A stretch of 64,000 nt of DNA from Elusimicrobiota bacterium. Its GTDB lineage: Bacteria > Elusimicrobiota > UBA8919. The notes under the pieces are model-generated. The model was not told where the DNA came from. It worked only from the letters and a program-made list of their open reading frames with translations, and searched no databases. Numbering within the stretch: position 1 is the stretch's first letter; each line of letters begins with the position of its first letter. Below are positions 421 through 56,965 of the stretch, one piece after another. Position numbers and translations under genes: made by a program. The stretch covers positions 10,334 to 74,333 of the forward strand of contig JAQUMH010000004.1 of assembly GCA_028718185.1 (NCBI GenBank), in the 5' to 3' direction.

Positions 421-741
421 CTTCTTTTGTTTTCGGCAACCTTGCTGGCTTGATAGTTTTTAGTCTTGCCACAAGCGGTTTATCACAAAGCGGTTTACAC
501 GCTTGTGATTTACTTGCTTGTTGTTCGTCGCTTATCGGCAACCTGTGTTGGCATTCACTATCTTAGCCCTTGGTTTTGCGAACTCATCCCACTTTCATGG
601 GAGCAGCCTTTTCGGAATTCGCACTCGCAGGTCGGAGCTACTGCACCGACCGAGTTAATGCTCGGAGTTCGGACCTACTGGACCGAACGAGAACATAACC
701 CCGATGTTAATCGTGGGAATGCAACCCCGCAGTAAGCGGGG
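421..741. repeat. Conserved intergenic structured element, copy 1 of 5. It has a 5' conserved core (cttcttttgttttcggYaaccttgctggcttgatag...ttatcggcaacctgttggc...cttagcccttggttttgcgaactcatccNNtttcNNgggag.agccttttcgga) plus REP-like GC hairpins and a terminal ccccgc-loop-gcgggg hairpin.
   Basis: Near-identical copies occur at 11345-11600, 16222-16605, 45897-46080 and 56783-56965. The small hairpin shows compensatory changes across copies (ccca/tggg, cccga/tcggg, cctga/tcagg, cccg/cggg). The ORF-track ORF 466-735 inside it is not conserved in frame, so this is non-coding. Confidence 0.6.
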
Positions 742-987
742 TAAAACAATACTGTTTACTTTAGTTTCTGCACGTTTCTACTAATGAAGTATAACACATA
801 AATTGAAAAAAGTCAATGACTAATATTGCTAAATAGTTGACTAATATTGTGTTATTTATACCTAAAACTACCCATAGTTGAAAAAAAATATATAAATTAC
901 TTTATGCAGACCTGTTTTATAACATCCTATGGCTTTAGATTTTGAACCCAAAACCCTATAACTCTATAACTCTATAACGCGTCTATC

Positions 988-3900
988 TTACTTTATCAGT
1001 CCTATTTTTCCGGTCTTCTTTTTACCTGTTCCGTCTTCTATCTGGTATATATATACTCCCTTACCTACTTTGTCGCCATCGTCATTCTTTCCATCCCACT
1101 CGAGCCAGCCAAGATTACCAAAATCGAGCTCTTTGAGTTCTCTCACTAATTCACCTGTCACACTATACAACTTCATAACACTGTTTATTGGAAGATTTGT
1201 TACCTTTAACTTACCTAAAACCGCTGTTGACGGATTATACGGGTTCGGATACACTTTAACATTACTCATATCTGCTGATACATAACTGCCCAATATTCTA
1301 TATGTTGAGAAATGTGTGACTGTTGCGGTAACAGTATTGTTAAATTTGTCTACTGTCTGGACACCTGTCACCAAATCCCAATCTGTCCCGTTCCAGTAAT
1401 ATATCCTTAACCCATCTTCGTTTAATGTCCCTATGTCCGTTTTTGTATATGGTATCGTTATGTTTACTGCTCGTGTGAATGTCTGGTTCTCCAGGACAGG
1501 AGCATTTTCAGCACCATATGTTAACTCGCCAAAATCATAACATATAGGATTAACTGTGTTAACATATTTCATCGTATTTCGAACTGCAGGTGCTGCACTC
1601 GTCTTTATTGACGCAAGATACTTGTTCGTAGATAACACGCCTGTAGGTATTAGTATCTTTAATCCATTGGCTCCCCGTATTGTTCCACCCTGGTAGCCTA
1701 CTAACTTTGAGATATACATATCACTGAAATTTATCACTACCGGCGCCGTGGTATCACCTGTTAACTCTATAGTATTTATGTCACTACGGAACGGGATTGA
1801 AACTTCCTTCTCACCTGCATCTGACTCGGTTAATGTTGAATCTGTTGTATTTAGGACACTACTCTTACTGTTCTTAGTTGTAAGAGTTATTGTCCCGGTG
1901 TAATCAGTCGCCAAACTACCCTCATCTATATTATATACCTGCACCTTAAACCTCAAACTCGCTGATGGTGTTGCTCCTACCTTGGTTGTAGTTGTCCCGT
2001 CATCATAGTAATATGTATATATTTTGTGCTTTAAGTTAGATGTTTTGAAACTGTATTGTGATGATGTTGCAAGGTTACCGGATGAGTCACGGCTGTAGAC
2101 TTTGTAATAATAGGTCTTCCCTTTCTGTAGCCCGGTAATAGGGACACTGTGTAATCTTGTAGGTGTTGTATCTAATGCAGTTGTCGTACCCATTGCCGTT
2201 GTAGTTCCGTATGCTACCTGTGAATCTGAGTTCTCATCAGTATTCCACGTTATCACAGCACTATTTATTGTTACTCCGGCTGATACATTGCTTATTACAG
2301 GCGGATTAGGGTCATTAAGAATAGTTGTAAAACTGTAATCGCCGGTCGTTGTCGTGTTACCATTCATATCTACAGACACCATCCTGTAATGATATAATGT
2401 GCTTTGAGTAAGCCCGCTTAATGTAACACTATGCAAATACACCCCAGTGGCATCTGTTACCGGAGTTGCACTGCCATAACTTGTCGTTAATCCATATTCT
2501 ATCTTACTGTTTGCTAACTCATTTGTTGTCCATGTTATAACCGAACCATTGCCGGTTATGTTAGTTGGTATTACTACACTTACTGTTGGCGGTGTTGTAT
2601 CCGGAGTTATACTTATCAACTTGATGTAATCAAAATTACCGGTATCTGTACTACCGGCGTCCATTACTAACTTCATTATCTGGTTGCCTGCAGTAAGCGT
2701 TACTGAGTTTGCGACTGTTATATCTGTAAATGCCTGCCAATTAACAGTATTAGGTACGCTTACCGATGGTGTTATTACAAGTGGTGTTCCATTGTGAGGA
2801 CCAAATTCAATATGGAACGGACTTGCATTTGATATTCCGCAACCTGCTCTTGCTATTACTTTATAGTTGCCACTTTGATTTACATTTATACTATATTCTA
2901 ACCATTCGGTTGGTACTGCAAAACCTATATCGTAACCACCAGTTGTGATTGCTTCAATATCCACTCCCTCGGTTAGCCTGTATGCTCCGCCTAAATTGTC
3001 GGAAGTTGTATCATGATATGATAAGCCCTCACCACTACCTCCGCTTATTATCCAATCAAAATTCTCTGCCTCTATCGTTGTTGTTCCTGTTACTATATTC
3101 CATGGATACCCGCTATTGCCATACGACTGCTGCGTTGAAATGATTGTTACTGTGTATGCTACACTATTTACTGAACTATCGGTCATACCAGTTTTGAACG
3201 CACGGGCACGGACTGTTGCACTCGCAGTTAATGTAAACGGTGCTGAATATAATGTTGACGATGATGTCGGGTCTGTTCCGTTTGTTGTATATCTTATCTC
3301 TGCCCCGCTGGTTGCACAACCTAATGTTACTGTAACAGAACTTATATATGTTCCTGCTGCCGGGCTAATTGTTGGTGTCGCCACTACACTTGGAGTATCT
3401 GCAATTATTTTTACTAATTTAATGAAGTTAATATTACCACAAGTAGTTGCTACATTAGAATCCATTACTAACTTCATTATCTGGTTGCCTGCAGTAAGCG
3501 TTACTCCTGTTGAAAGTGTTACATCCGTCCATGTCTGCCAGCCGGTTGTATTAGGTATACTTACTGATGGTATTGTTTGAACATAAGTAGCATTATTTTT
3601 AGCGAACTCAAGATGTATTGGACCATTACCTGACAGTTGACTGGCTCCTCTAACTAATATCTTATATTGTCCATCCTGATTAACATTTATACTGTATTCC
3701 AGCCACTCGGTTGGTGCTGTATTCTCCACATCGTATCCAGCACCCGTATCGGTGCATGCTTCCACATCTACTCCTTCTGTTGTCCTGTATGCACCACCCT
3801 CATTGCTGGTTGTTAAATCATGGTATGAATTACCTTCTCCGGTACCACTCGTCATCATATCGTAATCTTCTGCCTGTATAGTTGTTGTCCCTGTTCCTAT

Positions 3901-4308
3901 CAACCATGCTACGCCCGCGGGATATGCCTGCTGTTGTGGTGTAACAGCTGTTACTGTATATGCCACACTATTTACTGAACTATCGGTCATTGCAGCTTTG
4001 AACGCACGGGCTTTTACTGTTGCACTCGCAGTTAATGTAAATGGTGTGGAGTATAATGTTGACAATGATGTCGGGTCTGTTCCATTTGTTGTATATCTTA
4101 TTGAAGCTCCACCGGTTGTACAACTAAGTGTTACAGTAACAGAACTTGTATATGTTCCTGCATTTGGACTAATTGTCGGTGTATCTACCATATTAGGTAT
4201 ATCTGCATTTATTTTCACTAAATTAATATAGTTAAAATTACCTGCAGCTTCCAATGTACCTGCGTCCATTACTAATTTAAATATCTGATTGCCTGCAGTA
4301 ATCGCCAC
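988..4308 (-). CDS. C-terminal fragment of giant surface protein A. It contains tandem CBM6 plus chitobiase/beta-hexosaminidase C-terminal (CHB_HEX_C)-like modules, two FN3-like domains, a beta-sandwich region and a T9SS type-A C-terminal sorting domain (ends KIGLIK). It begins mid-domain with a GTG inside a CBM6.
   Basis: CBM6 hallmarks are visible (IxAEDYD...GEG.YHD...YRTTEGVDVE...GEWLEYS.NV...GNYK...HLEF...AGNQIMKLVMD). The CTD motif is YPNPYNP...KLYSVTGELVRELKE...WDGKNDDGDKVGKGVYIYQIE...KIGLIK. The ORF starts in the middle of a CBM6 (VAITAGNQIFKLVMD). Confidence 0.7.
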   Translation of the reverse strand: MAITAGNQIFKLVMDAGTLEAAGNFNYINLVKINADIPNMVDTPTISPNAGTYTSSVTVTLSCTTGGASIRYTTNGTDPTSLSTLYSTPFTLTASATVKARAFKAAMTDSSVNSVAYTVTAVTPQQQAYPAGVAWLIGTGTTTIQAEDYDMMTSGTGEGNSYHDLTTSNEGGAYRTTEGVDVEACTDTGAGYDVENTAPTEWLEYSINVNQDGQYKILVRGASQLSGNGPIHLEFAKNNATYVQTIPSVSIPNTTGWQTWTDVTLSTGVTLTAGNQIMKLVMDSNVATTCGNINFIKLVKIIADTPSVVATPTISPAAGTYISSVTVTLGCATSGAEIRYTTNGTDPTSSSTLYSAPFTLTASATVRARAFKTGMTDSSVNSVAYTVTIISTQQSYGNSGYPWNIVTGTTTIEAENFDWIISGGSGEGLSYHDTTSDNLGGAYRLTEGVDIEAITTGGYDIGFAVPTEWLEYSINVNQSGNYKVIARAGCGISNASPFHIEFGPHNGTPLVITPSVSVPNTVNWQAFTDITVANSVTLTAGNQIMKLVMDAGSTDTGNFDYIKLISITPDTTPPTVSVVIPTNITGNGSVITWTTNELANSKIEYGLTTSYGSATPVTDATGVYLHSVTLSGLTQSTLYHYRMVSVDMNGNTTTTGDYSFTTILNDPNPPVISNVSAGVTINSAVITWNTDENSDSQVAYGTTTAMGTTTALDTTPTRLHSVPITGLQKGKTYYYKVYSRDSSGNLATSSQYSFKTSNLKHKIYTYYYDDGTTTTKVGATPSASLRFKVQVYNIDEGSLATDYTGTITLTTKNSKSSVLNTTDSTLTESDAGEKEVSIPFRSDINTIELTGDTTAPVVINFSDMYISKLVGYQGGTIRGANGLKILIPTGVLSTNKYLASIKTSAAPAVRNTMKYVNTVNPICYDFGELTYGAENAPVLENQTFTRAVNITIPYTKTDIGTLNEDGLRIYYWNGTDWDLVTGVQTVDKFNNTVTATVTHFSTYRILGSYVSADMSNVKVYPNPYNPSTAVLGKLKVTNLPINSVMKLYSVTGELVRELKELDFGNLGWLEWDGKNDDGDKVGKGVYIYQIEDGTGKKKTGKIGLIK

Positions 4309-4376
4309 ATTGGTTGCAACTTCTACATCTATCCATGTTTGCCAACCACCTGTTGCCGGAACAGTGATTGGTGGTG

Positions 4377-7300
4377 TTATACTATAGTACCAAATTCAAG
4401 ATGTATAGGATTACCGGTAGTTGCAAGTCCATTAGCTGTTCTTAGTATAATTTTGTATTCACCACTTTGATTTACATTTACACTATATTCAAGCCATTCA
4501 CCTGGCTGTGTCCAACCTACATCATAACCATTACCGGTATCGGTACATGCTTCCACATCTACTGCCTCTGTTGTCCTGTATGCACCACCTTCATTGCTTG
4601 TTGTTAAATCATGGTATGAATTACCTTCTCCGGTACCACTCGTCATCATATCGTAATCTTCTGCTTGTATTGTTGTTGTCCCTGTTCCTATCAACCATGC
4701 TACGCCCGCGGGATATGCCTGCTGTTGCGGCGTAACGGCTGTTACTGTATATGCTGCGCTATTTACTGAACTGTCGGTCATTGCAACTTTGAACGCACGG
4801 GCTTTTATTGTTGCACTCGCGGTTAATGTAAACGGTGCGGAGTATAATGTTGACAATGATGTCGGGTCTGTGCCGTCAGTTGTATATCTTATTGCGGCCC
4901 CACTGGTTGTACAACTAAGTGTTACAGTAACAGAACTTGTATATGTTCCTGCATTTGGACTAATTGTCGGTATTGAAACCACAGGTAAATCTGCATTTGC
5001 TTTTATTAATTGGATGTAGTTAATATCTCCATTACCGGATGCAGAACTATTGTCCATAACCAACTTCATTGTCTGGTTACCTGCGTTAAGTGTTACTCCG
5101 GGTGAAAGTGTTACATCTGTGAATGTATCGTAACTACCTGTGGGAGGTGTGCCTGCTGACGGTGTTGTTTGAACATAAGTTGCATTATTTTGGACGAATT
5201 CAATGTGTATCGGACCACCGTTGATTGTATCTCCGTTGGCGCCCCTAAGTATTATTTTGTAGTTACCGGCTTGATTCACATTTACGCTGTATTCTAACCA
5301 CTCACCCGGTGCTGTCCAGCCTACCTGGTAACCAGCGCCTGCATCTGAAACAACTTGTCGGACATCTACTCCTTCCGTCGTCCTGTAATCATTACCCATC
5401 GAATTACCTTCATTGAGAGATGCTGTATCATGATATGCCTCACCCTCACCGGTACCACTCGTCATCATATCGTAATCTTCTGCCTGTATAGTTGTTGTCC
5501 CTGCTCCTATTAACCACGCTACGCCGGCAGGATATGCCTGCTGCGTTGCCGGCGTACCTCCGGTTATAGTTACTACTTGTGCTGATGTCGTGGCTGTAGT
5601 ATTATTATTATCTGTTGCTTTCGCCGTTATACTGTAACTTCCCGCAGGAACATTATTCCATACAAACTCATATGGCGAACCGGTGTCTGTTCCAAGCCAT
5701 GTACTGCCGTTGTAAAAATCTACTTGTTTTATACCTAAAGAGCTGGATGCATCTACATCTATAGTTAAAGTTGCAGGTTCCTTACCGCCATTTGAAACGT
5801 TAATTGAGGTTATACTTACATTTGGCGGTATAACAGCTGTTGTATCCAATATCCGCAGAGCTATATCTTCAGTATAAGCCGGTGGTGTTAATACCTTAGA
5901 ACCTGTCGAATTTTGTGTAAAGGTTTCTGTCTTATCTATATTCCCTGTTTTAGTATTAACCCACTCTGCTTTATAATTGCCCGCTACTAAATTAACCGTA
6001 AGCGAAGCTTGACCTCCTGATCCTAAATAATAAGCATACTGTTTGTTACTACTATTACCAACCAGCGCTCTCACAGCCGGAGCTCTTGAACTGTCAGGTG
6101 TCATTTTAACAAAATTAACGGAATGAATAAAATCTTTAGCAATTTTAATAATACCGCGTAAAGACGGGTCACCTGTTGTAAGTCCGCATTGTGTGCCGTC
6201 GGCACACATTGTGCATTTAACCGAACCATCCGGTACCAGATAGGTGAACGAGTCATCACACAAATTCCATAGTGCACCACCGGCTAAAATCCATTTCCAT
6301 AACATTCTGCGAATTTTAAGATAATTATCACCTTGATATGTTACCTCGGTACATGCTAAAGGTTTGTTATAACTTAAGTAATTAGCAGTAAGATCAGATT
6401 GAGCATCGGGTTCTTCATCATAATGATCCCATGCAATCACATTTGCATTTGTAAAAGGAACAGGATCGCCATTATTATCACCGACAGCGTTTTGAACAAT
6501 AAGATGCTTTTTCGGGAGGGATGCCTCTGCTGCGATTATTTTATTCATTGTGTTACTGTCAAATGAACCTGACATAACTCTATTAGTTTCAGTTCCATTG
6601 TAATTAGGTTCCATTGTTAGAAGATACATAACATTGTCAAATCCATTTAATTCTGTAACCACCTTAGTAATCATAGCGTTTATATATGGTGTCAAACCTC
6701 CGTTACTGTTAAGATCCCAAACACTATTTAAACCACTGGTTGTCCAAGAAGCTGTGTTTCCTACGCCGTTGATATTATTAATTGAATTCATGGGATTACG
6801 TTTCCAGAATTCATCACCCGGAAGATCATTCCGGTTCCAAAAAGGAATGAAAAAGACAAAGTCCACTACTATACCGCGGTCACTAGCTTTCTGAACGAAA
6901 TCTTTGAGACGGGGAAAATATGAATTAGCCGACGTGCCTTGATCGTCCCACTTGGACAGATCAAATTTATATGTGTTCAGGTCTACAGTTCTTCTCCAAG
7001 GACAGACAAATTTGTTATCATCCGGACCAAGAGGGTTATCTCTATAATTCCACCAGTTGTGATAACCTGGATGATTCCACCAATTGTTTCCGGCTCCTTC
7101 AGCATACATTCCGGAACAAATTTGCACATAATTAAGTCCTTTGGACTGGAGTTCATTCAAATATGGAACATAATCAAAAGCAAGATTCATTACCGAACCA
7201 TAATGTTCATTGGACCCAACCAGGACTGTCGGTTTGCCTTTATATAAAAAGTAATGCGGATTATCAGGATGAAGTTTTATCGGCTCTGTAGTTATTACTT

Positions 7301-10064
7301 TCGTGCCTGGAGTTCCTATTGTTGCAGTCAAACTGCGCCATGCGGATTCTATCGTATCTTTAGTGGTTGCATAATCGCGACTATCGGCAAAACCTATTGT
7401 AAAATATGCCGGTGTAAAATTCATATTCTTTACTAAATAATCTGCACCTCTACCAAACCCGAACACTGTCATTGGAGTTGTAGGACCTGCCATTGTATAG
7501 TATGTATCATATAAATTATCCGGTTGGTTATGGTTAATTACATATAAACTCCTGTTTATTGTTCCATCAGCAAAATACACCCACTCGGGGTCAGGTAAAT
7601 CTATGTTTGACGCTGTGGTCGCGGTTATATTCATTTGTGTATTGTTTGATTGTACTATATAATCAGAAGCAGTATTTAATGTCCCACCGGGGGTTCCTTC
7701 GTATAAAAACCAATAATTTCTTGAAGGATCTCTCTGATACAGAGTCATTCTTGCATATTTAGGAAATATATCCCAGTAACATTTCCAATTGTTGTCACTA
7801 CTTATTGAGTTTATCCTGACTTTCAATGGTCCCTGACTTACTATGTTACTTGTTGATGCTCCTTTACTTGCTGATGAACCATCAAACCCCGGATGAAAAT
7901 AACAGTTCAGTGTGGTATCATGCACCATATTTGGTATTCCCCGGTATTCGCCTGATGCTTGATTACCTACTGAATAACTAAGCCAATCGTTATTCTGGGA
8001 ATCTACCATGCTGGAAAAACCTGCTCCTATCTTATGATAATAATATGTTGCATTCGCTGTATCAAACTTATAACTTGACTGTCCCTCATCCGTTACATTA
8101 TCCGTTAATGTTACCTGATTTGTAAAATTAACTTTTGTTATTGATGAATCTACATCAAAATATATCCTGAAATATCTCGTTGCGTTTGCATTTGTAGTAC
8201 CACTCATCATAAATGTAACTGTACCGATTGCATTACTTGCCGCATTATATGCAGAATCCTTATCAAACTGAAATACTACACTATCATTTATTATTGTATT
8301 ACCTGTACTATCGGTCTCTCTCACTCTTAAAGAATTTTCATTTAAACTGCCATTTACACTAAGGGCTGTAAGATACTGTGTAAAATTAACTGCTACTTCT
8401 ACAGGTTTATCGGACCTTGCATAACTGCCGACTGCCACTGTTACCGGTACATAATATAATGGGTCACCCTGAGTAGGAAGTGTAATAGTAAATGCCGCTG
8501 TTACGATATTGCTGTCTAACATACCAGATTTATAAGCCATTGCTTTTATTGTAGCATTACCAGATAATGTTATTGGACCGGAATATACATTACCGTTTGT
8601 TGAGGATGGGTTACTGCCATCGGTTGTATACTTTACAACTGCTCCGCCTGTTGCACAATTAATATATACTGTCTGGGCGCTGGTATATGTCCCACCATTG
8701 GGATTTATTACAGGGTCTGCCACCAACTGCATTCCGCCGGTATTATACCGGACAAGAAGCACAGGTCCGGGAAGCAGAACTTCGGTTCCATGTTCAACTG
8801 TCTGGTTAACAACTTTAACAGTCATAGCAGTATTACTCAAAAGTGATTTATCAACGGGTCTTGTTCCAAGTGCATAAGTATAAAGAGTATTGGAATCTTG
8901 AGTGTTGCCGGCATTGACAGCATTAATAGTAAACGGAGCGTTATCACTTGCCCATGTTCTCCAATACATTATACTTTCTATTGCTTTAGTTAAGTCATGC
9001 AAACCGCTCGATTGTGCAGCGGGTATTGTTATAGTACAAGATATATCAACACCTGTACGCTGTGCCCAGTCCGCCGGTAAGCTATTAGGTTTATAAATCA
9101 CTGTTGTGTATCCAGCGTGTGATATTGTAAGATTTGTTATTTCGGGTGTTACATACCAGTAACCATTTGCAGCTTTTATCCTTGCTTTTAGTTTTACACT
9201 GCCTTGGTCGGGTATATATTTAGTATTCCATGTTACTCCCCACGGTGCTGAGGTCGCACTTCCGACATTGTCCCTGATTGTTAAATCAGTGGAACTTTGC
9301 ACGGTTCCTAACCTGTTCCAGAATTCATGCCAATCTAAATAATAATTATTACCATTTTCATCAAACCCGTCATAATATGCAACATAATCTACTTTGGATA
9401 TACTTGAACCTGCCGGAGGTGTAGCGTTTAGTGAAATTGCAACCGATTCACCAATTGTACCGGCAGTTGGTCCTGTAATAGTACCTGATGGTGCTGAAAC
9501 TGCACTGGGTGTATAATATAATCTTAAGATTACACCATATTGTCCCCATTGTCCCCATCCATGAAATCCATCACATCCGGAATTGTCACCGCATGCAAAG
9601 TTAAAATTATTGGTGCCTGCTGTTAGTTGTGATAATTGACTTGTTATATTTATCTCAACATTATCTTGTAGCATATAACTATTTACATCCCCACCGCATG
9701 CTCCAAGATTAGCGATACTAACAGTATTATTAGGTACAGAAATCCAAGAATTACCATTTATATTAATAACTTTATTTATAGTTCCGGCATGTCCGCCCCA
9801 TCTGTCTATGATTATTTCAGCCCTTATTACATTCTGCAAATCTCCCGATACTAAACTTATTGTTTGAGCGTCATTTGGCAAAAAAGTTTTAGCAGTTGCA
9901 TTTGCTGTAGTTGGATCTGTTACGCGCCAGCCGTTATCATTATCAGCACACCTGCTATGAAATTCCTTATACACCTCTCCCGACTGCGGCGACGCATTTG
10001 AAAGCATACTTAATCCTATCATTACTACTGATAACATCATACACCATCTGATAATCTTACCCAT
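4377..10064 (-). CDS. N-terminal fragment of giant surface protein A. It has a signal peptide (MGKIIRWCMMLSVVMIGLSMLSNA), a chitobiase-C-like domain, a putative GH5/GH140-like TIM-barrel region (PIKLHPDNPHYFLYKGKPTVLVGSNEHYG...), an Ig-like domain, then CBM6 plus CHB_HEX_C modules. It ends inside a CBM6 (...NPIHLEFGTIV*).
   Basis: The likely true start is ATG at 10064, preceded by GGAGGG (SD). The ORF-track start at 10118 is an in-frame read of the 5' UTR. The same N-terminus with its SD is conserved in paralog B at 44537. The CDS terminates mid-domain. Confidence 0.7.
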   Translation of the reverse strand: MGKIIRWCMMLSVVMIGLSMLSNASPQSGEVYKEFHSRCADNDNGWRVTDPTTANATAKTFLPNDAQTISLVSGDLQNVIRAEIIIDRWGGHAGTINKVININGNSWISVPNNTVSIANLGACGGDVNSYMLQDNVEINITSQLSQLTAGTNNFNFACGDNSGCDGFHGWGQWGQYGVILRLYYTPSAVSAPSGTITGPTAGTIGESVAISLNATPPAGSSISKVDYVAYYDGFDENGNNYYLDWHEFWNRLGTVQSSTDLTIRDNVGSATSAPWGVTWNTKYIPDQGSVKLKARIKAANGYWYVTPEITNLTISHAGYTTVIYKPNSLPADWAQRTGVDISCTITIPAAQSSGLHDLTKAIESIMYWRTWASDNAPFTINAVNAGNTQDSNTLYTYALGTRPVDKSLLSNTAMTVKVVNQTVEHGTEVLLPGPVLLVRYNTGGMQLVADPVINPNGGTYTSAQTVYINCATGGAVVKYTTDGSNPSSTNGNVYSGPITLSGNATIKAMAYKSGMLDSNIVTAAFTITLPTQGDPLYYVPVTVAVGSYARSDKPVEVAVNFTQYLTALSVNGSLNENSLRVRETDSTGNTIINDSVVFQFDKDSAYNAASNAIGTVTFMMSGTTNANATRYFRIYFDVDSSITKVNFTNQVTLTDNVTDEGQSSYKFDTANATYYYHKIGAGFSSMVDSQNNDWLSYSVGNQASGEYRGIPNMVHDTTLNCYFHPGFDGSSASKGASTSNIVSQGPLKVRINSISSDNNWKCYWDIFPKYARMTLYQRDPSRNYWFLYEGTPGGTLNTASDYIVQSNNTQMNITATTASNIDLPDPEWVYFADGTINRSLYVINHNQPDNLYDTYYTMAGPTTPMTVFGFGRGADYLVKNMNFTPAYFTIGFADSRDYATTKDTIESAWRSLTATIGTPGTKVITTEPIKLHPDNPHYFLYKGKPTVLVGSNEHYGSVMNLAFDYVPYLNELQSKGLNYVQICSGMYAEGAGNNWWNHPGYHNWWNYRDNPLGPDDNKFVCPWRRTVDLNTYKFDLSKWDDQGTSANSYFPRLKDFVQKASDRGIVVDFVFFIPFWNRNDLPGDEFWKRNPMNSINNINGVGNTASWTTSGLNSVWDLNSNGGLTPYINAMITKVVTELNGFDNVMYLLTMEPNYNGTETNRVMSGSFDSNTMNKIIAAEASLPKKHLIVQNAVGDNNGDPVPFTNANVIAWDHYDEEPDAQSDLTANYLSYNKPLACTEVTYQGDNYLKIRRMLWKWILAGGALWNLCDDSFTYLVPDGSVKCTMCADGTQCGLTTGDPSLRGIIKIAKDFIHSVNFVKMTPDSSRAPAVRALVGNSSNKQYAYYLGSGGQASLTVNLVAGNYKAEWVNTKTGNIDKTETFTQNSTGSKVLTPPAYTEDIALRILDTTAVIPPNVSITSINVSNGGKEPATLTIDVDASSSLGIKQVDFYNGSTWLGTDTGSPYEFVWNNVPAGSYSITAKATDNNNTTATTSAQVVTITGGTPATQQAYPAGVAWLIGAGTTTIQAEDYDMMTSGTGEGEAYHDTASLNEGNSMGNDYRTTEGVDVRQVVSDAGAGYQVGWTAPGEWLEYSVNVNQAGNYKIILRGANGDTINGGPIHIEFVQNNATYVQTTPSAGTPPTGSYDTFTDVTLSPGVTLNAGNQTMKLVMDNSSASGNGDINYIQLIKANADLPVVSIPTISPNAGTYTSSVTVTLSCTTSGAAIRYTTDGTDPTSLSTLYSAPFTLTASATIKARAFKVAMTDSSVNSAAYTVTAVTPQQQAYPAGVAWLIGTGTTTIQAEDYDMMTSGTGEGNSYHDLTTSNEGGAYRTTEAVDVEACTDTGNGYDVGWTQPGEWLEYSVNVNQSGEYKIILRTANGLATTGNPIHLEFGTIV

Positions 10065-10119
10065 ACCTTTCCCTCCAGTTTTTCTATATATTTGATTCCT
10101 AATTTGGTTTATTTTCATA

Positions 10120-10200: not shown

Positions 10201-10201
10201 T

Positions 10202-11152
10202 TTACTCTTTCCCTCCAAACCTTATCCCTAACGATATCCTGTGCGTGTCGCCTAAATCTTTTGTCGGAACAAATGCATAATCTATATTAAATGTTGAACT
10301 TTCACCGGCTATCTTAAAACCGCCGCCTAATGTGTATGTCTCTTCGTCATAGCCTATCTTATAGCCTGCCCGGATTCCTATCATCTCGGCTATTACTAAC
10401 TCTAAACCTATATTCTCTCTTGTTGTTGCACTGTCTAATCCATAATTGACATCGGCTGCTACCGTTAAGTTGTTCTCGCCTTCAAATGCCGATAGCTTCT
10501 TGCCTAATCCGGCTTTTATATTGCCGGGTAAATTGTCACTGCCTACTTTACCGCCTATGTTCTGGACTGCTAACCCTAATTGTAATCCGCCTTTTACTGG
10601 AACATACTCTACTCCTAAGTCTATTCCAAAACCTGTTGTGTTGTCACTATCTATCTTCTGGCTCGCCATTTTCAAACTGCCACCTACATTTATTGTCTCA
10701 TCTACCTGTTTGCCGTAACTTATTGCACCACCTATGTCTTTTGCACCGAAAGTGCCTACGCTGCCTACTGTATCATATGCGCCGGCTGCATCTTCTAATG
10801 TTTTGTCTATATTGCCATAATTAAGGTACATTATCTGTAAGCCTATTGTGGAACTCTCATTTATTGGATGCCCGATTGCTAAATACTCGTAACTTATTCC
10901 TTCAAAATATGATAAATGCATAAAGGATAACTCGGTTGCACTTACTGAACCTAATCCCGCGGGATTCCAATATACGCTATTGACATCTTCAGCAACTGCT
11001 ACTTGTGCGCCGCCCATTCCTTCCTGCTTGGCGCCTACTCCTACCTTTAAAAACTGCATAGCTGAGCTGCCAACGCCGGCTTGTACATTGCTTGTACATA
11101 TAATAGGTACAACCAGGACTGCCAACATTACTGCACTTAACATCTTACGCAT
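10202..11152 (-). CDS. PorV/PorQ-family (FadL-like) outer-membrane beta-barrel protein, paralog 1.
   Basis: Signal peptide (MRKMLSAVMLAVLVVPIICTSNVQA), then the motif MQFLKVGVGAKQEGMGGAQVAVAEDVNSVYWNPAGLG typical of the PorV/PorQ / UPF0164 family. It has alternating beta-strand character and ends in a C-terminal aromatic residue (...IRFGGKE). The true start is likely ATG at 11152 after GGAGGT. It lies immediately upstream of CTD cargo gene A. Confidence 0.55.
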   Translation of the reverse strand: MRKMLSAVMLAVLVVPIICTSNVQAGVGSSAMQFLKVGVGAKQEGMGGAQVAVAEDVNSVYWNPAGLGSVSATELSFMHLSYFEGISYEYLAIGHPINESSTIGLQIMYLNYGNIDKTLEDAAGAYDTVGSVGTFGAKDIGGAISYGKQVDETINVGGSLKMASQKIDSDNTTGFGIDLGVEYVPVKGGLQLGLAVQNIGGKVGSDNLPGNIKAGLGKKLSAFEGENNLTVAADVNYGLDSATTRENIGLELVIAEMIGIRAGYKIGYDEETYTLGGGFKIAGESSTFNIDYAFVPTKDLGDTHRISLGIRFGGKE

Positions 11153-11344
11153 TTTAACCTCCATTTTCTGAAATTTATTGAAACTTATTGTAATTTGTTG
11201 TAATTCTTTGTCGTTTAATTTCTTCTAATTTCTATCTATTTCTATTAATTTCTATAACTATTACCAAAAAATAAAAGAAGCTTACTAAAAATTACATACC
11301 TATCTAAATGCGCTATGCACTTTTGGTATATAATTTCTAATACT

Positions 11345-45815: not shown

Positions 45816-45864
45816 AGAAGTATATTAGAAAACTAGTTAATAATTAGTTGATTAAGTTTTTAAC

Positions 45865-46721: not shown

Positions 46722-46748
46722 AAGGTGCTAAAATCAACTTAGCACCTT
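46722..46748 (-). terminator. Intrinsic terminator-like hairpin for the minus-strand gene 46919-50749 (stem aaggtgcta/tagcacctt, then TTTGTTTT on minus).
   Basis: Direct reading. It is preceded by a GC palindrome gcacgcccttggcgtgc (46691-46707) and the conserved atgtataggaatttcaatgtt block. Confidence 0.45.
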
Positions 46749-50929: not shown

Positions 50930-53900
50930 CTACTTTTCCACACCAATCTTTATTTTCTTTGTTTCGCCTGTACCTTTTATATATAATACATATACACCAC
51001 TCGCCACTGTCTTACCACCTTCATTCTTACCATCCCATACTATACTGCCTCTTTCTCCGGTTTCTACCAACTCCCTTGCTAATTCTCCAACTAATGTGTA
51101 TATTTTTACCACTGCTCCGGCTGTTAAATTATCTATAGTCATTCCTTGAGCGTGCTTCATCGGATTAAATGGACTTGGATACACTTTTACATTACTTAAA
51201 TCAGTTACCGGAACTAATTCCAGTAACGCAAATTTGCTTAAATGATTACTTTTGGCTATTACCTTATTATAACTTGAATATACTGTTGATTGTAACGCTT
51301 CCCACCTCTTGTTATTTTCATCATACCAGCCTACTACTAACTTACTCTCGTCATAACCAGCTATTGAAATGTCGTCATAACTTATCGTTATAAGCATTTC
51401 CTTTGGCTGCAGGTTCTTGTCATTTACTATTTCTATTCCATAGCCTAATACCTTTATTGCCCGCCTGTCACTTACAGGCACATCTATTGCTTTTAACGTT
51501 AAATTCGCTGTAGTAGAAAACGCACCTATTGGCACCAAAACACTTATCTCACTATCCACACTGCTATTCTCACTTATTGGTGTTACCGCCATCCCGCTTG
51601 ATATCTGTATCTGCGGACTCACTATCCTTGTTACACTTAACGGCTTGCATATATAATTCTGTCCTTCCATATCAATACTTAAACTTGTGTATTCCATCTT
51701 CTTAGGCCAGAACCGCCAATCTTCTTTTTTAGGCTCTACACTGTAATCGCCGATTCCTAAATCCATAAACTCGTAATATCCATCTTCTCCAGTAATATAA
51801 CTGTTAATAATGCCACCACTTAAATTCATTGTTATCCCGCTTATACTGCTGCTGCTCTTGTATACTTGCACATTGCCAATGATATTGGATACTGTGGTAG
51901 TAGGAGCATATGTTACTGTTATTGTTGTTTCTTTCTGATTACTATGTGTAGATATATCAGTCGCTCTGACATATACCGTATTGGGACCTTTCTTCAATCG
52001 CACGGTTCCGCTCCATGTTTCTAATCCATTAACTGCTGAATATGTCCCGCTTTCACCTACCTTTATTTCTACTTTGCTTAATCCTAAATTATCTGATGCT
52101 GTTCCTCTTAAAGATAATAATGAGTTCGTTACTGTTGTGTTGTTTCCTGGTGTTGTAATTATTATTATTGGAGGAGTGGTCTCGGATAGTGCCGGGATAC
52201 CATATACTTCAAATTCATATAATGAATATCCATAAGGTCCTCTCGCAAGCCCGTTCATACGGACATATCTGCCACTACCATTTAACGCTATATCGTCTGT
52301 TCCGCCTGTTCCGCCTATCTTTGTGGCTACTGTTGTCCAGTCCATACGATTGTCTGATACTTGTATCTGGTAATCTTTTCCATATGCTGCTTCCCATCTT
52401 AATATTACTTCTGTTATGGTACACGTTATACCTAAATCTACATATATCCATTCCGAGTCACGGTACGGCGATTGTGATGCCCATCGGGTCCCAAGTTTCC
52501 CGTCTATTACATAATTAGGATTATCATTGCCATTTCCTGCTTCTACTGAAGATGCATAAGCAGTCGTACCTATTGCAAGATTTGCCGTCCCTTCTGTAGT
52601 TTTCCCACTTGCACAGTTGGATATTCCTGTCCAATTCGTAGCTACTTCATCTACTACCTTCATTGCAAAATAATAAACAGTATCTGCATTTAAGCCGTTT
52701 ACCGTATAACTCTGGTTACTACCGGCTATTAATGGCGTCGGTTCACCACTACACTGTGCTACACTTACCCAATCCCAGTTGATACTTGTTATACTATATG
52801 TCGCATAACGGATATCATAATCACTCGCCGTACCTGTGCCCCCATCATCGCCTACTGTTGACCAATTTAATACTATTGTTCTTCCTCCGGGATTACTGGT
52901 AGTTAAATCGTTTACTGTTGAAGGCGGTATCGTATCTGTCGGATCTGTTTCTTTGTTTACTATATTAGATATCCCTGACCAGTTATTTACATCGTCACCC
53001 GCCTTAATCGCAAAGTAATATATTGTACTTGAATTTAACCCTTTCACTGTGTAGGTTTGATTTGTCCCTACTGCTTGAGGAATTGGTTCATTACTGCATT
53101 GTGTAGCTGTAGCCCAATTACTGTTTGTTATAGGTGTCAATGCGTAGCGAATATCATAATTACTCGCTGTACCTATGTTACCATCGTCGCCTACTGCTGT
53201 CCAACTTAATTGGAGACTATTGCTGGTTGCAGTTGCACTCGCTAATGTGTTTATATCTGTTGGCGGGGTTGTGTCATTAAATGTTACGGTTACCTGGCTT
53301 GCTCCGGCAAGGTAATCATCCGATACGGCATGAACTGTTATTATATGATTACCTTGTGTATAGCCGGCTGTATTCCATGTGTATGTCGGACTTGCAGATA
53401 TCTTAACTAGTTTGTTATCTATAAAATAACGATATGAGACAACTGGATTGGTTGTCTCAGAATTAGGTGTAGCTGTTACTGATATATTTACGCTAGCACT
53501 TACTACAGCACCATTTACAGGAGAATTTATAGAAACGGACGGTGATAGCTTAAAAAAGTCGTCATCCATAACTTTATCATACACTGCTCTTTCTTCAGTG
53601 GTTAAATTATAAAGTTTAAATATTCCTATTCCAAGACCGGCAATCTGAGGTGAGTCTGCTCTCAAGTATTTTATCCACAAGTCATCATCCGGTGCATATC
53701 CGTCATAGATGTTTCCGCCACCAAGGATAGGAAATGTTTTTCCATCAAGCCTACGGTATTTTGCCCAGTTAGTATTCCTCTTAGTAAATGTTCTATAATC
53801 TTTGATTCCATGGTAGAAATATAACTCAGGTACATAAAAATCTATTACATCGGCTCCATTCGTCATCATTTCATCAAAACCATCTCCAAAATAAGCAGCA

Positions 53901-55447
53901 GTCACAAAAAAATTGGGATATTGTTGTTTCACCCGCCTAAGTGCATTTATGGATTTTTGGACTCGAGTATCCGAATCATTAGAAGCCCATTCGTCAATGG
54001 ATAACCCGTAATATCCTTCTTGAGCAGCCTCTAAGTAATTGTTATACATTTTTTCTTCAGTGTCAAGATACCATTCGTTAGTAATTGTATATGTCGGCAC
54101 CCTGCAAGCATAACTATATGGTATCGGAAGTTTCCCTTTTGCTATCATCCCATCGTGCCATGACTTGGTAGCCCACATTAAACCGGAAAAATTCATAGTT
54201 TCGTGAGGTTGCTCGCCAGGACCGGCACACCAGTAAATAATATATGGTATTTTTATAGGTGCGAGAGTAGGATTTGGATATATAGCACCTTCATGAAAAA
54301 GAAAATTGTTGTTCGGCAAAGTAACAAGCGGAGAAGTTGTTCCACCTGGTGAATTTGATATTGGTGACCAATTCGGCACTTCATCCGCAGCCTTTATTGC
54401 AAAGTAATATTGGGTGTTTGGAGAAAGTCCAAGTGCCATAATTGACTGGTTTGTACCAGCCCATTCTATCGGTAGCCAGTAAATGTCAATCGGTGTAGCT
54501 AAGTTCCAATCTGTTTCTGTTAATATAGGAAAAGTATAATATCTTATATCATACTTTGAAACTCTGTAGTCATTACCATCATCGCCGGGAGCAGTCCATG
54601 TAAGCGTAACTGAAGTAGGTGTGGGATTGATTGCAGCTAAATTATTTATTTGGGCCGGTGGTGTGGAGTCTGTAAGAGCTGATGTTGTCGCGCTCGGTGA
54701 ATTTGATGAAGATGACCAATTGGGCACATCATCTGCTGTTTTTATTGCAAAGTAATATTTAGTTGAAGGTGAAAGTCCGGCAATAGTGAATGTTTCTGTC
54801 CTGGACATTTCTTGCGGTGTTGGTGTAACTGCGACTTTAGTCGCAGAATCCCAGTTTGCATCTGTTATCGGTGAAAGTGAATATCTAATATCATATGAGA
54901 TATATCTTGATGCGACTATCCTTGAACTGTTGTTATCACCGGGTGCGGTCCATGTAAGTGTAACTGATTTTGCTGTTGTTCCGCTTACTATCAAATTATT
55001 TATTTTATCAGGTGGTATAGTATCTGTGAGAGCAAGAGTTGTTGCACTCGGTGATTTAGATATTGGTGACCAGTTAGACAATTTATCGCTTGCTTTGATT
55101 GCAAAATAATATTGTGTTGAAGGTGAAAGTCCAAAGACAATAAACGATTCAGCACAACCTGCAGGCTTTGGATTCGACTCACCTGTAACCTGAGTTGCAG
55201 AATCCCAGTTAGCATCCGATATTGGTGAAAGAGAGTACCTGATATCATATGTTATCGCTGTTCCTGTGTTGCCGTTATCGCCGACAGACCTCCATACAAG
55301 TGTTATTGTCTTGGATGTCGGGTATGCCGTCAGAAAATATGTTATCTTACCGGGCACACCGGATAATACACTTGTTGTAAACATACATGCTACAAAAATG
55401 CATATTATAAACATACAATATTTTTTTACCAATTTCTGTCTGAACAT
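50930..55447 (-). CDS. Large secreted protein (1505 aa). It has FN3 x3, the conserved unknown 330 aa domain (the same family as the C-termini of the three 900 aa paralogs), FN3 x2, an F5/8 type C discoidin domain, Ig-like domains and a type-2 CTD (ends KIGVEK).
   Basis: The unknown domain reads NNNFLFHEGAIYPNPTLAPIKIPYIIYWCAGPGEQPHETMNFSGLMW...GYYGLSIDEW...FFVTAAYFGD...DDDLWIKYLRADSP. The discoidin region reads GTRWASQSPYRDSEWIYVDLG...YGKDYQIQVSDNRMDWTTV...GRYVRMNG...YSLYEFEVYG. The CTD resembles that of 46919-50749. Confidence 0.7.
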   Translation of the reverse strand: MFRQKLVKKYCMFIICIFVACMFTTSVLSGVPGKITYFLTAYPTSKTITLVWRSVGDNGNTGTAITYDIRYSLSPISDANWDSATQVTGESNPKPAGCAESFIVFGLSPSTQYYFAIKASDKLSNWSPISKSPSATTLALTDTIPPDKINNLIVSGTTAKSVTLTWTAPGDNNSSRIVASRYISYDIRYSLSPITDANWDSATKVAVTPTPQEMSRTETFTIAGLSPSTKYYFAIKTADDVPNWSSSSNSPSATTSALTDSTPPAQINNLAAINPTPTSVTLTWTAPGDDGNDYRVSKYDIRYYTFPILTETDWNLATPIDIYWLPIEWAGTNQSIMALGLSPNTQYYFAIKAADEVPNWSPISNSPGGTTSPLVTLPNNNFLFHEGAIYPNPTLAPIKIPYIIYWCAGPGEQPHETMNFSGLMWATKSWHDGMIAKGKLPIPYSYACRVPTYTITNEWYLDTEEKMYNNYLEAAQEGYYGLSIDEWASNDSDTRVQKSINALRRVKQQYPNFFVTAAYFGDGFDEMMTNGADVIDFYVPELYFYHGIKDYRTFTKRNTNWAKYRRLDGKTFPILGGGNIYDGYAPDDDLWIKYLRADSPQIAGLGIGIFKLYNLTTEERAVYDKVMDDDFFKLSPSVSINSPVNGAVVSASVNISVTATPNSETTNPVVSYRYFIDNKLVKISASPTYTWNTAGYTQGNHIITVHAVSDDYLAGASQVTVTFNDTTPPTDINTLASATATSNSLQLSWTAVGDDGNIGTASNYDIRYALTPITNSNWATATQCSNEPIPQAVGTNQTYTVKGLNSSTIYYFAIKAGDDVNNWSGISNIVNKETDPTDTIPPSTVNDLTTSNPGGRTIVLNWSTVGDDGGTGTASDYDIRYATYSITSINWDWVSVAQCSGEPTPLIAGSNQSYTVNGLNADTVYYFAMKVVDEVATNWTGISNCASGKTTEGTANLAIGTTAYASSVEAGNGNDNPNYVIDGKLGTRWASQSPYRDSEWIYVDLGITCTITEVILRWEAAYGKDYQIQVSDNRMDWTTVATKIGGTGGTDDIALNGSGRYVRMNGLARGPYGYSLYEFEVYGIPALSETTPPIIIITTPGNNTTVTNSLLSLRGTASDNLGLSKVEIKVGESGTYSAVNGLETWSGTVRLKKGPNTVYVRATDISTHSNQKETTITVTYAPTTTVSNIIGNVQVYKSSSSISGITMNLSGGIINSYITGEDGYYEFMDLGIGDYSVEPKKEDWRFWPKKMEYTSLSIDMEGQNYICKPLSVTRIVSPQIQISSGMAVTPISENSSVDSEISVLVPIGAFSTTANLTLKAIDVPVSDRRAIKVLGYGIEIVNDKNLQPKEMLITISYDDISIAGYDESKLVVGWYDENNKRWEALQSTVYSSYNKVIAKSNHLSKFALLELVPVTDLSNVKVYPSPFNPMKHAQGMTIDNLTAGAVVKIYTLVGELARELVETGERGSIVWDGKNEGGKTVASGVYVLYIKGTGETKKIKIGVEK

Positions 55448-55561: not shown

Positions 55562-56596
55562 TTAGAATTTCACATTCAATGCTACTCTATGTGTATCGCC
55601 TAAATCGCCAAACGGAACAAATGCATAATCTAACCCATATCCCTTATAATCTAAACCAGCTCCTACACTTATCCCTTTTAATCCACTTATGTCTTTTGTT
55701 TTGGTGTTGTATCCTGCCCTGCCTATTAGTGTCGTTCCTTCACCCGCGTCATACTTATACTCAGTCCCTGCTCCTATTCCTATCCCACTGTCATTTACTG
55801 CTGTTATATCTAACCCGACTAACCATTCCGGTTGAATATTATATCCTCCACCTACACGTATTGTCATAGGTAAATTATCACTCTCTTCTACATACTTCAT
55901 CTTACTGCCTACATTCTGAACTGCTAACCCTATACTCATTCCGCTATCTATTGGCTTATATAACATTCCTACATCACCGGCTATCGCTGTCGCACTCTCC
56001 TTTATCTTGCTGCTTATATACTTTACTCCTACTCCTAATGACACATCGTCACTTACTATATTCCCATAACTTAACGTAACAGACATATCTGTTGGACTAT
56101 AATTACCACCTAATATTCCATTTATATCGCTTTCTTTTATATTACCATAATTTATATATTGCACACCTAACCCTATTACTCCTACACCTGCTATCGGCTG
56201 TCCATAACCTACCCAACTATAACCTATATCTTCAAACCAGACCGCATGCATTACACTTATTGATGTTTTTTCTATTCCAGCTAATCCTGCTGTATTCCAA
56301 TATATACTACTTGCTCCTTCACATACTCCTACTCCGATATCGCCCATCCCACTACTACGGGCGCCGGCTCCTATTTTTAAAAACTGGACTGCACTTGTCC
56401 CTGTATCATCTTTGCTAAAGGCAGCGTATGTGCTGCTTGAAACAAGAAGCAAGAAGCAAGAGGCAAGAAGCAAGAAACAAGATAACATCTGATTTCTGAC
56501 TTCTGGTTTCTGACTTCTAATTTCTGACATTGGACATTGTCCGCCACTAAACATTGGTGAAGCAGGGACTTTTGACTGTCTCTTTAAATTTTTCAT
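55562..56596 (-). CDS. PorV/PorQ-family outer-membrane beta-barrel protein, paralog 3. It is divergent (about 30-35% identity to paralogs 1 and 2) and has an unusual repeat-encoded N-terminal extension.
   Basis: VQFLKIGAGARSSGMGDIGVGVCEGASSIYWNTAGLAG... aligns with the PorV-like motif of paralogs 1 and 2. The C-terminus ends in F. ATG 56596 has a good SD (AGAGGT). An alternative start is ATG at 56488 (MLSCFLLLASCFLLLVSSSTYAAF). Confidence 0.5.
   Translation of the reverse strand: MKNLKRQSKVPASPMFSGGQCPMSEIRSQKPEVRNQMLSCFLLLASCFLLLVSSSTYAAFSKDDTGTSAVQFLKIGAGARSSGMGDIGVGVCEGASSIYWNTAGLAGIEKTSISVMHAVWFEDIGYSWVGYGQPIAGVGVIGLGVQYINYGNIKESDINGILGGNYSPTDMSVTLSYGNIVSDDVSLGVGVKYISSKIKESATAIAGDVGMLYKPIDSGMSIGLAVQNVGSKMKYVEESDNLPMTIRVGGGYNIQPEWLVGLDITAVNDSGIGIGAGTEYKYDAGEGTTLIGRAGYNTKTKDISGLKGISVGAGLDYKGYGLDYAFVPFGDLGDTHRVALNVKF
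56439..56530. repeat. Simple-sequence repeats inside the 5' coding region of PorV-like paralog 3: heptamer CAAGAAG/CTTGCTT x about 6 (56439-56481), then 13-mer tttctgacttct(g/a)(g/a) x about 2.5 (56491-56530).
   Basis: Direct reading. On the sense strand it reads cttgttt cttgctt cttgcct cttgctt cttgctt cttgttt, encoding the hydrophobic core of the signal peptide. Related caagaagcaag repeats occur at 20760-20810 and 23430-23480. Confidence 0.6.
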
Positions 56597-56659
56597 AAAT
56601 ACCTCTAATTTTATACTTTAAAGTGTAACATATAATTGATAATTTCTCGGCTGCGTTCG

Positions 56660-56700
56660 GGATTGTTTTATTGGTCTCCAGTAGGGGACTCAATAAAACA
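56660..56700. repeat. Perfect hairpin ttgttttattggtctcc-agta-ggggactcaataaaacaa (third copy).
   Basis: Matches 16018-16060 and 45774-45815. Confidence 0.5.
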
Positions 56701-56750
56701 AAAAAGAAGTATATTAGAAAATCAATCAATTAGTTAATTAAGTTTTTAAC

Positions 56751-56782
56751 CTAATTCGCTAATTCACTAATTTACTAATCCA
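56751..56782. repeat. Tandem octamer array (ctaattcg ctaattca ctaattta ctaatcca).
   Basis: Identical to 45865-45896. Confidence 0.55.
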
Positions 56783-56965
56783 CTTCTTTTGTTTTCGGTA
56801 ACCTTGCTGGCTTAATAGCCACAAGCGGTTTATCACAAAGCGGTTTACACGCTTGTGATTTACTTGCTTGTGGTTTGTCGTTTATCGGCAACCTGTTGGC
56901 GTTATCTATCTTAGCCCTTGGTTTTGCGAACTCATCCCGCTTTCACGGGAGTAGCCTTTTCGGAG
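56783..56965. repeat. Conserved intergenic structured element, copy 5 (core only).
   Basis: The core is conserved. The hairpin variant cccg ctttca cggg has an extra insertion (acaagcggtttatcacaaagcggtttacacgcttgtgatttacttgcttg) that is shared with copy 1. Confidence 0.6.

Follow-up and report, generated by a model that had tools for sequence, protein, structure and literature searches.

Five copies of a conserved non-coding element, c1 to c5, lie on the minus strand of the window analysed here, a stretch of 64,000 nucleotides (nt) of contig JAQUMH010000004.1 from an Elusimicrobiota bacterium. We propose, with a probability of roughly 0.6 as judged from the sequence and its predicted folds, that these repeats are divergent leaders of the cyclic di-GMP-I (c-di-GMP-I, or GEMM-I) riboswitch class, in which a distal strand would close helix P2 into a competent aptamer, a proximal strand would serve as a decoy, and a long hairpin further 3' (domain II) is the likely expression platform. 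The broader conclusion, that the element is a structured and strand-specific non-coding RNA in the 5' leaders of operons for secretion and surface proteins, is supported. The riboswitch class itself is known, whereas the duplicated P2 strand, the Elusimicrobia host and the operon context appear to be new.

The copies share an exact 31-mer, GATGAGTTCGCAAAACCAAGGGCTAAGATAG, which occurs five times and always on the minus strand (at 558, 11479, 16335, 46021 and 56906), and a 3' block, AAGGTTRCCGAAAACAAAAGAAG, which marks the 3' end of every copy (at 421, 11345, 16222, 45897 and 56783). Because no match to the 31-mer was obtained in 100 shuffles, the repeat is non-random. The single orientation of the copies, described in an earlier reading made from the letters only (the sequence-only reading), was confirmed by both blocks in all five cases. 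In the minus-strand alignment, conserved blocks of about 85 nt and about 38 nt are split by a hairpin of 44-68 nt, for which three unrelated sequences are found (one in c1 and c5, one in c2 and c4, and one unique to c3). Coding potential was ruled out by a 2-nt indel within a conserved block, insert lengths that are not multiples of three, and the lack of a common open frame, in agreement with the non-coding conservation claimed before. When a covariance model built from the copies was searched over the window, only these five were recovered and no additional copy. A sixth copy (c6) from the same organism is present on Logan contig L016 (3-91) and scores 99 bits with our own covariance model. 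Exact-word scans for CGCAAAACCAAGGGCTAAG in genome and metagenome contigs, and for a 23-mer in viral contigs, returned only four unrelated chance matches, although a looser pattern might have recovered more.

Predicted aptamer features and the duplicated P2 strand

The Rfam c-di-GMP-I family (RF01051) was the top riboswitch match in all six copies, on the minus strand and over the full model (1-87), with scores of 21.8 (c1), 26.3 (c2), 26.9 (c3), 29.5 (c4), 32.0 (c5) and 22.4 bits (c6, on L016). These matches were found in E-value mode; the gathering score of RF01051 is 35 bits, and an Rfam scan at the gathering threshold gave no match, nor did a scan for tRNA and tmRNA. The best member of the Rfam clan was c-di-GMP-I itself. 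Where the sequence-only reading had proposed a shared regulator in the 5' untranslated region (UTR), the structured and strand-specific leader RNA holds, while the label of an unknown regulator gives way to a full-length match to c-di-GMP-I. The protein docking site suggested in the same reading was not borne out, since every copy instead aligns full-length to this riboswitch aptamer. Matches to MIR6135, RyhB and similar Rfam families were rejected as chance hits on AU-rich hairpins. Domain II of c1, c4 and c5 (340-420, 45830-45895 and 56715-56780) carries tandem AATTAGTG-like octamers (aattagtgaattagtgaattaatgaatta), which explain the spurious MIR6135 match. No GEMM was found at the distant PorV homologue loci L006-L013, which have a different gene context, or at the distant AraC locus L017.

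The defining features of GEMM-I used for comparison were taken from PMC1950547 and PMC4744006. In GEMM-I, the hairpins P1 and P2 lie next to each other in the 5' UTR (PMC1950547), and two adjacent hairpins were predicted in all copies, with a promoter upstream on the same strand and a gene downstream. P1 has a 6-bp stem under a GAAA tetraloop, invariant in all six copies, as in the 2-bp plus 6-bp GNRA-capped P1 of the class. Across the five window copies, 100% of the cells in this 6-bp stem are paired, three of the six pairs are changed on both sides, and one changes from C-G to U.G; the covariation score was reached by only one of 500 shuffles. The paired substitutions that had been described in the small hairpin are therefore real. 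For example, one P1 pair is C-G in four copies, U.G in L016 and U-A in c4, and the stem of L016 has 5 bp plus one C.A. The G.U pairs in c1, c3, c4, c5 and L016 would be A.C mismatches on the opposite strand and thus fit only an RNA of the minus strand.

The linker and the pocket also resemble the known class. An AAA linker joins P1 and P2 in GEMM-I, with two exceptions among 322 sequences, and the corresponding CGC-AAA-ACC is invariant in our copies. The ligand contacts are G20, A47 and C92 (PMC4744006). In the Rfam alignments, AAAAGGC (G20), CGC-AAA (C44 and A47) and GCCGA (C92) fall at conserved consensus positions in all copies, C44 being present throughout, and the predicted pocket triad G/A/C is the one found in c-di-GMP binders. 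A tetraloop receptor in P2 is usual, not obligatory, when the loop is GAAA, and the 5' half of this receptor, CUAAG, is invariant in the P2 5' strand.

The most unusual part of the leaders is P2, whose 3' strand, together with the next junction, is present twice, so that either copy can pair with the single 5' strand AACCAAGGGC. The proximal strand reads GAAUGCC-AA-CAC-AGGUUGCCGAUAA, and the distal strand, located 100-125 nt later, reads CAAGCC-AG-CA-AGGUUGCCGAAAA. In ViennaRNA predictions, RNAs ending before the distal strand close P2 proximally, and distal closure is the minimum free energy structure of all five full cores. Distal closure occupies 40-83% of the full-length ensemble and proximal closure at most 4%, with a free-energy difference of 1.8-8.0 kcal/mol. 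The change from proximal to distal closure is predicted 9-10 nt before the distal GGUU is complete in c1-c4, and 1 nt after it in c5. Distal closure was also selected independently by RNAalifold. It adds a 6-bp upper helix (GAUAGU/ACUAUC) above the receptor, a position at which the GEMM-I consensus also has a helix, and proximal closure adds none. In addition, G83, which pairs with C44, is universally conserved among GEMM riboswitches (PMC4744006). Its equivalent is A in all six proximal strands and G in four of the five distal strands, and thus P2 contains the conserved G83 only if it is closed by the distal strand. The displaced proximal strand can form a small hairpin of its own (GUUGC/GCGAC, or UUGC/GCAA in c3).

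From these features, the following mechanism can be proposed. The leader mRNA would be a minus-strand transcript that begins at a sigma-70-like promoter, and P1 (the GAAA-capped 6-bp stem) would be followed by the AAA linker and by P2, whose 5' strand holds CUAAG. P2 would carry an insertion of 100-125 nt, made up of a decoy copy of its own 3' strand (with G83 changed to A) and a hairpin that can be exchanged. The decoy would pair first while the RNA is being transcribed and would then be displaced by the newly made distal strand, which would supply the G83-equivalent and the 6-bp upper helix of the binding-competent fold, and c-di-GMP would lock this distal-closed form. The tail CGAAAACAAAAGAAG may act as the 5' arm of an AU-rich hairpin with a U tract, a candidate attenuator or processing site. 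As a result, the PorV-like barrels and the giant surface proteins that bind carbohydrate would be expressed in dependence on c-di-GMP. AraC-type regulators beside several copies (two in the window and two on Logan contigs) probably add a second control layer.

Domain II and the extent of the leaders

The sequence-only reading had described five copies that share a core of about 180 nt. The five minus-strand copies stand, while this core omits a conserved long hairpin and U tract further 3', through which the conserved element reaches to about 329, 11265, 16055, 45810 and 56699. The hairpin begins at the invariant tail CGAAAACAAAAGAAG, which directly abuts the aptamer and pairs with CUUCUUUU(U/A)UUUU, 80-170 nt downstream, to form the base of the long AU-rich domain II. 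Three different sequences make up its interior, one in c1/c4/c5, one in c2 and one in c3, and both of its arms are found only beside aptamers. The z scores of the four domain II hairpins that were folded are -8.2 (c1), -8.0 (c2), -6.0 (c4) and -8.8 (c5).

The A tract, long stem and U tract of domain II give it the outline of an intrinsic terminator; a simple terminator scan of the leaders called no canonical terminator at this position. A mutually exclusive terminator/antiterminator pair, or sequestration of the Shine-Dalgarno (SD) sequence conserved across the copies, was searched for and not found, and the differences between forced-proximal and free folds were confined to the aptamer region. 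Pairing of the c4 aptamer 5' edge with the SD sequence and the start codon was rejected, as it is not conserved in the other copies. Judged from the predicted folds, domain II is the sole conserved candidate for an expression platform, and would act either as an attenuator or as a processing site.

A strong sigma-70-like promoter precedes every copy by 110-240 nt on the minus strand, which agrees with the placement downstream of predicted minus-strand promoters in the sequence-only reading. A gene for a PorV-like barrel or a secreted protein, at the head of an operon of giant CBM/fn3/PKD proteins, follows at 180-363 nt. In the five window copies, no second promoter of at least 10/12 occurs between the element and the gene. 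The distances from the element to the next start codon are 180, 193, 363, 204 and 187 nt for c1-c5, respectively; the upstream position on the same strand agrees with what had been claimed, and the spacing of 190-250 nt given with it has to be widened. The features of the five leaders are as follows.

Copy c1 (all minus strand)
788-816, promoter, TTGACT-17-TATACT
532-616, aptamer: junction UCCGAAAAGGC, P1 with GAAA loop, AAA linker, P2 5' strand, and proximal 3' strand ending GCCGAUAA; 21.8 bits with Rfam (model 1-87) and 107 bits with our own model R1
459-531, insertion in P2: 3' arm of the small hairpin (GUUGC/GCGAC) and variable hairpin of type A; z score -3.0
421-458, distal P2 strand AACUAUCAAGCCAGCAAGGUUGCCG and invariant tail AAAACAAAAGAAG
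329-420, domain II: long AU-rich hairpin, 3' arm CUUCUUU, U8 tract; z score -8.2

Copy c2 (all minus strand)
11716-11744, promoter, TTGACT-17-TATACT
11455-11537, aptamer and proximal strand; Rfam c-di-GMP-I, 26.3 bits
11383-11454, insertion: small hairpin arm and variable hairpin of type B
11345-11382, distal strand and tail, GGUUAUCG; the C92-equivalent is U here only
11265-11344, domain II and U tract; z score -8.0; stem extendable into the distal P2 strand

Copy c3 (all minus strand)
16633-16661, promoter, TTGACA-17-TATATA; read from the sequence; it fails the scanner's rule for the last T of the -10 box
16309-16393, aptamer and proximal strand; Rfam c-di-GMP-I, 26.9 bits
16260-16308, insertion: small hairpin (UUGC/GCAA) and variable hairpin of type C; z score -4.5
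16222-16259, distal strand and tail; matches the 3' block
16055-16221, domain II and U tract; GC-rich insertion at the hairpin apex

Copy c4 (all minus strand)
46187-46215, promoter, TTGACA-17-TATACT (11/12)
45997-46079, aptamer and proximal strand; Rfam c-di-GMP-I, 29.5 bits
45935-45996, insertion: small hairpin arm and variable hairpin of type B; z score -3.3
45897-45934, distal strand and tail; GCUAAC gives a G.U pair, and the G83-equivalent is A
45810-45896, domain II and U-rich strand, CUUCUUUUUUGUUUU; z score -6.0

Copy c5 (all minus strand)
57073-57101, promoter, TTGACA-17-TATACT (11/12)
56882-56964, aptamer and proximal strand; Rfam c-di-GMP-I, 32.0 bits
56821-56881, insertion: small hairpin arm and variable hairpin of type A
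56783-56820, distal strand and tail, GGCUAUUAAGCC; G.U pair in the upper helix
56699-56782, domain II and U-rich strand; z score -8.8; spurious MIR6135 match on the same hairpin

Rival readings and known systems

Several observations weigh against divergent, distally closed c-di-GMP-I leaders. All six RF01051 scores are below the gathering threshold of 35, by 3-13 bits. The internal loop of P1 in GEMM-I has 3 highly conserved nucleotides, AAA in the consensus, and in our copies this loop is U(G/A)C opposite the 7-nt UGAGUUC, where the Rfam consensus has AAA and GAC. Neither strand carries a canonical 3' half of the tetraloop receptor (AAUGC/AAAGC/AACGC in the proximal and CAAGC/UAAGC in the distal strand; the canonical sequence is UAUGG). 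In Vc2, the length of P1a matters for binding, and this helix is needed for stable binding (PMC11705072). The leaders have no P1a closing helix beyond two possible base pairs (C-G and G-C, with the CG of GCCGA), their 5' flank is conserved only from UCCG on, and the 3' tail pairs with downstream sequence instead of P1a. A permuted P1a, formed by domain II reaching C93, was set aside as speculation, because the pairing extends only to A95-C99 except in c2. In the distal strand itself, the G83-equivalent is A in c4, and the C92-equivalent is U in c2, in that strand only. Domain II is predicted in both aptamer states in four of the five copies, the exception being c2, in which it can invade the distal P2 strand. 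Both closures of P2 are almost invariant across the copies, two G.U pairs being the sole changes in distal closure, and for this reason covariation cannot choose between them. Finally, all copies are paralogues of one organism, and recent duplication or gene conversion may partly explain their conservation.

A compact, conventional GEMM-I aptamer could instead be closed by the proximal strand, with the distal strand as an anti-aptamer platform which strips off the P2 5' strand without ligand; the ligand would then fix P2 in its proximal form, with the distal strand and the tail remaining free. Rfam aligns the proximal strand in every copy, and this strand is made first and closes P2 in truncated RNAs. 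Its GCCGA is invariant, while the distal strand has C changed to U in c2 and has lost G83 in c4, and in GEMM riboswitches it is usually the 3' part of P2 for which the platform competes (PMC1950547). We nevertheless regard proximal closure as unlikely, since the universally conserved G83 (PMC4744006) is missing in all six proximal strands, no helix is left above the receptor, the receptor position varies (U/A/C), and proximal closure makes up at most 4% of the predicted ensemble. A GEMM-like fold that senses another ligand or none, either as an orphan variant or as a structural or stability element of the leader, is less probable still. It would fit the sub-threshold scores and the altered P1 internal loop, neither a P1a helix nor a clear switch was found, and the same Rfam clan (CL00126) includes variant families whose pockets are changed. 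However, the G/A/C triad matches c-di-GMP binders and not the known variants, the top clan member is c-di-GMP-I itself, and the gene context is typical of c-di-GMP control.

The remaining two explanations are a small RNA family and a DNA repeat, both named in the sequence-only reading, or a protein operator. For a family of trans-acting small RNAs, in which transcription would end at domain II and its U tract to give RNAs of about 400-600 nt, the terminator-like A tract, long stem and U tract can be cited. This explanation has no specific support otherwise and seems very improbable: the five window copies lie directly upstream of a gene on the same strand with no intervening promoter of at least 10/12 (the sixth is cut by a contig end), the simple terminator scan finds nothing at domain II, and the element is not known to have a complementary target. 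The genome is rich in palindromic repeats, some of them inside the leaders, and AraC genes adjoin four leaders, which could point to a DNA repeat of the repetitive extragenic palindrome (REP) or miniature inverted-repeat transposable element (MITE) type, or to an operator for a protein such as the AraC neighbours, with no RNA function. We give this the smallest chance of all, because the core keeps a single orientation and always lies between promoter and gene, compensatory changes occur with strand-specific G.U pairs, six independent full-length matches lead to a single riboswitch model, and c1, c3 and c4 have no adjacent AraC gene.

Compared with c-di-GMP-I riboswitches (RF01051; Vc2 and Vc1 of Vibrio cholerae, Cd1 of Clostridioides difficile), the leaders have the same adjacent hairpins, the 2-bp plus 6-bp P1 with GAAA, the AAA linker, the CUAAG receptor half, G20/A47/C92 and C44, a 5' UTR position before envelope or extracellular genes, and alternative pairing centred on the P2 3' strand. 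They differ in scoring 3-13 bits under the gathering score, in a P1 loop that is not AAA, in the non-canonical receptor 3' half and in a P1a that is not evident, as well as in the duplicated P2 3' strand with 100-125 nt inserted between its copies, the supply of G83 from the distal strand only, and a host of the phylum Elusimicrobia with operons for PorV-like barrels and proteins with type IX secretion signals. The variants of the GEMM-I clan (c-di-GMP-I-GGC, c-di-GMP-I-UAU and the cGAMP-sensing GEMM-Ib) have the same scaffold and lower RF01051 scores; these variants change pocket nucleotides, whereas the leaders keep the standard G/A/C and their change is architectural. REP/MITE palindromes are likewise multi-copy intergenic hairpin repeats, and true REP-like units are inserted in three leaders, but the leader core differs from them in its fixed orientation, its asymmetric multi-helix structure and its fixed position between promoter and gene. 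Bc1 of Bacillus thuringiensis is similar in that a GEMM-I aptamer is followed by a long multi-hairpin platform, with a ligand response that is not simple (PMC11218506). Bc1 differs in its two typical rho-independent terminators and in having no duplicated P2 strand (PMC11218506); the leaders have a single long AU-rich hairpin, followed by a U tract, and lack a canonical terminator.

Our literature searches found no report of a c-di-GMP riboswitch in Elusimicrobia or of a GEMM riboswitch tied to type IX secretion. A probable set of c-di-GMP riboswitches, with at least six copies in this genome, is missed by standard annotation in a little-studied phylum. The set offers a concrete and testable link between c-di-GMP signalling and PorV-like barrels with giant carbohydrate-binding proteins, that is, polysaccharide attachment in Elusimicrobia. 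To our knowledge, a duplicated P2 strand has not been described before. If it is functional, it would be a simple natural decoy strand that shapes co-transcriptional riboswitch folding, which would be relevant to the study and design of riboswitch kinetics; if not, the leaders are merely a divergent member of a well-known class. The folding models also allow a more far-reaching proposal, which we consider possible though rather doubtful. It would be an undescribed architecture in which a GEMM-I P2 is closable by two mutually exclusive strand copies, a G83-less decoy and then a competent distal strand, the obligatory non-binding intermediate serves as a timer or bistable element, and P1a is replaced by a 3' hairpin that doubles as the platform, the whole coupling c-di-GMP to type-IX-related surface operons in Elusimicrobia.

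Operons, regulators and repeats around the leaders

The genes that follow the leaders in the window are listed below.

1-241, minus strand, first gene after c1: N-terminus with signal peptide, running off the window
10202-11164, minus strand, first gene after c2: PorP/SprF- or PorV-like outer-membrane barrel
4377-10118 and 988-4308, CBM6/Big_7 giants after the c2 barrel
12635-15859, minus strand, gene after c3: CBM6-fn3 protein with a type IX secretion C-terminal domain
44694-45704, minus strand, first gene after c4: PorV/PorQ-like barrel, identical to P0121, followed by a 2800-aa CBM6/Big_7 protein
55562-56596, minus strand, first gene after c5: PorV family barrel, followed by fn3/F5-8C and PKD/PA14 giants and a terminator at 46722-46748

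The giant downstream proteins carry CBM6, CBM35, fn3, PKD, PA14 and Big_7 domains, and the canonical terminator at 46722-46748 divides the c5 unit from the c4 promoter. At least 10 further PorV-like paralogues, with 80-87% identity, are present on other contigs of Elusimicrobia metagenome-assembled genomes, possibly of the same genome. Repeated DNA segments, some of about 790-800 nt and others of about 350-430 nt, are shared within and between the giant CBM6/fn3/Big_7 genes (2596-5347, 37794-39902, 17240-28897 and 53268-55223), and they indicate expansion of domain arrays and exchange among paralogous surface proteins.

Divergent AraC-family genes stand beside c2 and c5 in the window and beside two leaders on Logan contigs L016 and L015, and c1, c3 and c4 have no adjacent AraC gene. 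The four paralogues are about 50% identical (11791-12582 and 57578-58375, both on the plus strand, L016:605-1402 and L015:556-1338). Their position beside four leaders suggests that regulator, promoter, riboswitch and operon recur together as a module. Both AraC genes of the window have perfect TTGACA-16-TATAAT promoters (11657-11684 and 57505-57532), and the one at c2 is located within the minus-strand leader, convergent with the leader promoter. In c4 and c5, another promoter-like cassette, TTGACAGAAAATCAATAGTGTGTTATATA, precedes the main promoter by about 190 nt (about 46368-46408 and 57258-57298) and resembles the sole promoter of c3 and of the L016 copy. Together with the main promoter, this cassette may form tandem promoters in c4 and c5.

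The GC hairpins appended to some copies, which the sequence-only reading had taken to covary as part of the RNA, turned out to be separate REP-like palindromes present in three of the five leaders. The palindrome TCGGAGCTACTGCACCGA, in a CTCGG..CCGAG frame (the ggtcgg..ccgacc hairpins), has seven copies in both orientations, all in the leaders of c1-c3: 632-649, 669-686, 11552-11569, 15950-15967 (opposite strand), 16408-16425, 16488-16505 and 16525-16542. An ACCCCGC..GCGGGGT hairpin accompanies the REP units (724-742, 11581-11599 and 16580-16598). These GC hairpins are REP-like insertions outside the RNA motif, their occurrence in both orientations being characteristic of REP/MITE elements. 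An SD-like GGAGG/GGGGG (46100-46115, 56985-57000, 11620-11632, 16612-16622 and L016:100-110) lies 25-35 nt 5' of the aptamer in leaders without an inserted REP and can pair with (C/U)UCC at the aptamer 5' edge; c1 is without such an element. In c2 and c3 the REP insertions stand between the SD-like element and the aptamer edge, as if in the loop of that hairpin.

The aptamer and domain II of c3 are bracketed by an 85-nt inverted repeat (15902-15986 and 16389-16473, 93% complementary), in which AT-rich CCCGATT..AATCGGG palindromes are combined with REP units. At the RNA level, a long duplex would enclose the riboswitch; at the DNA level, the repeat resembles the termini of a composite element or of an invertible segment. 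No recombinase gene was found near this repeat.

Two further observations concern contigs with PorV homologues. On a Candidatus Firestonebacteria contig, a PilZ-domain gene (L010:3286-3828) is directly upstream of a PorV-like homologue (L010:4001-5068). The PilZ domain is a protein receptor for c-di-GMP, and its gene at this position hints that c-di-GMP is linked to PorV-like barrels there too, by a protein route. On an unrelated metagenome contig with a PorV homologue, a NiCo riboswitch was detected above threshold beside cation-efflux genes (L006:1723-1812).

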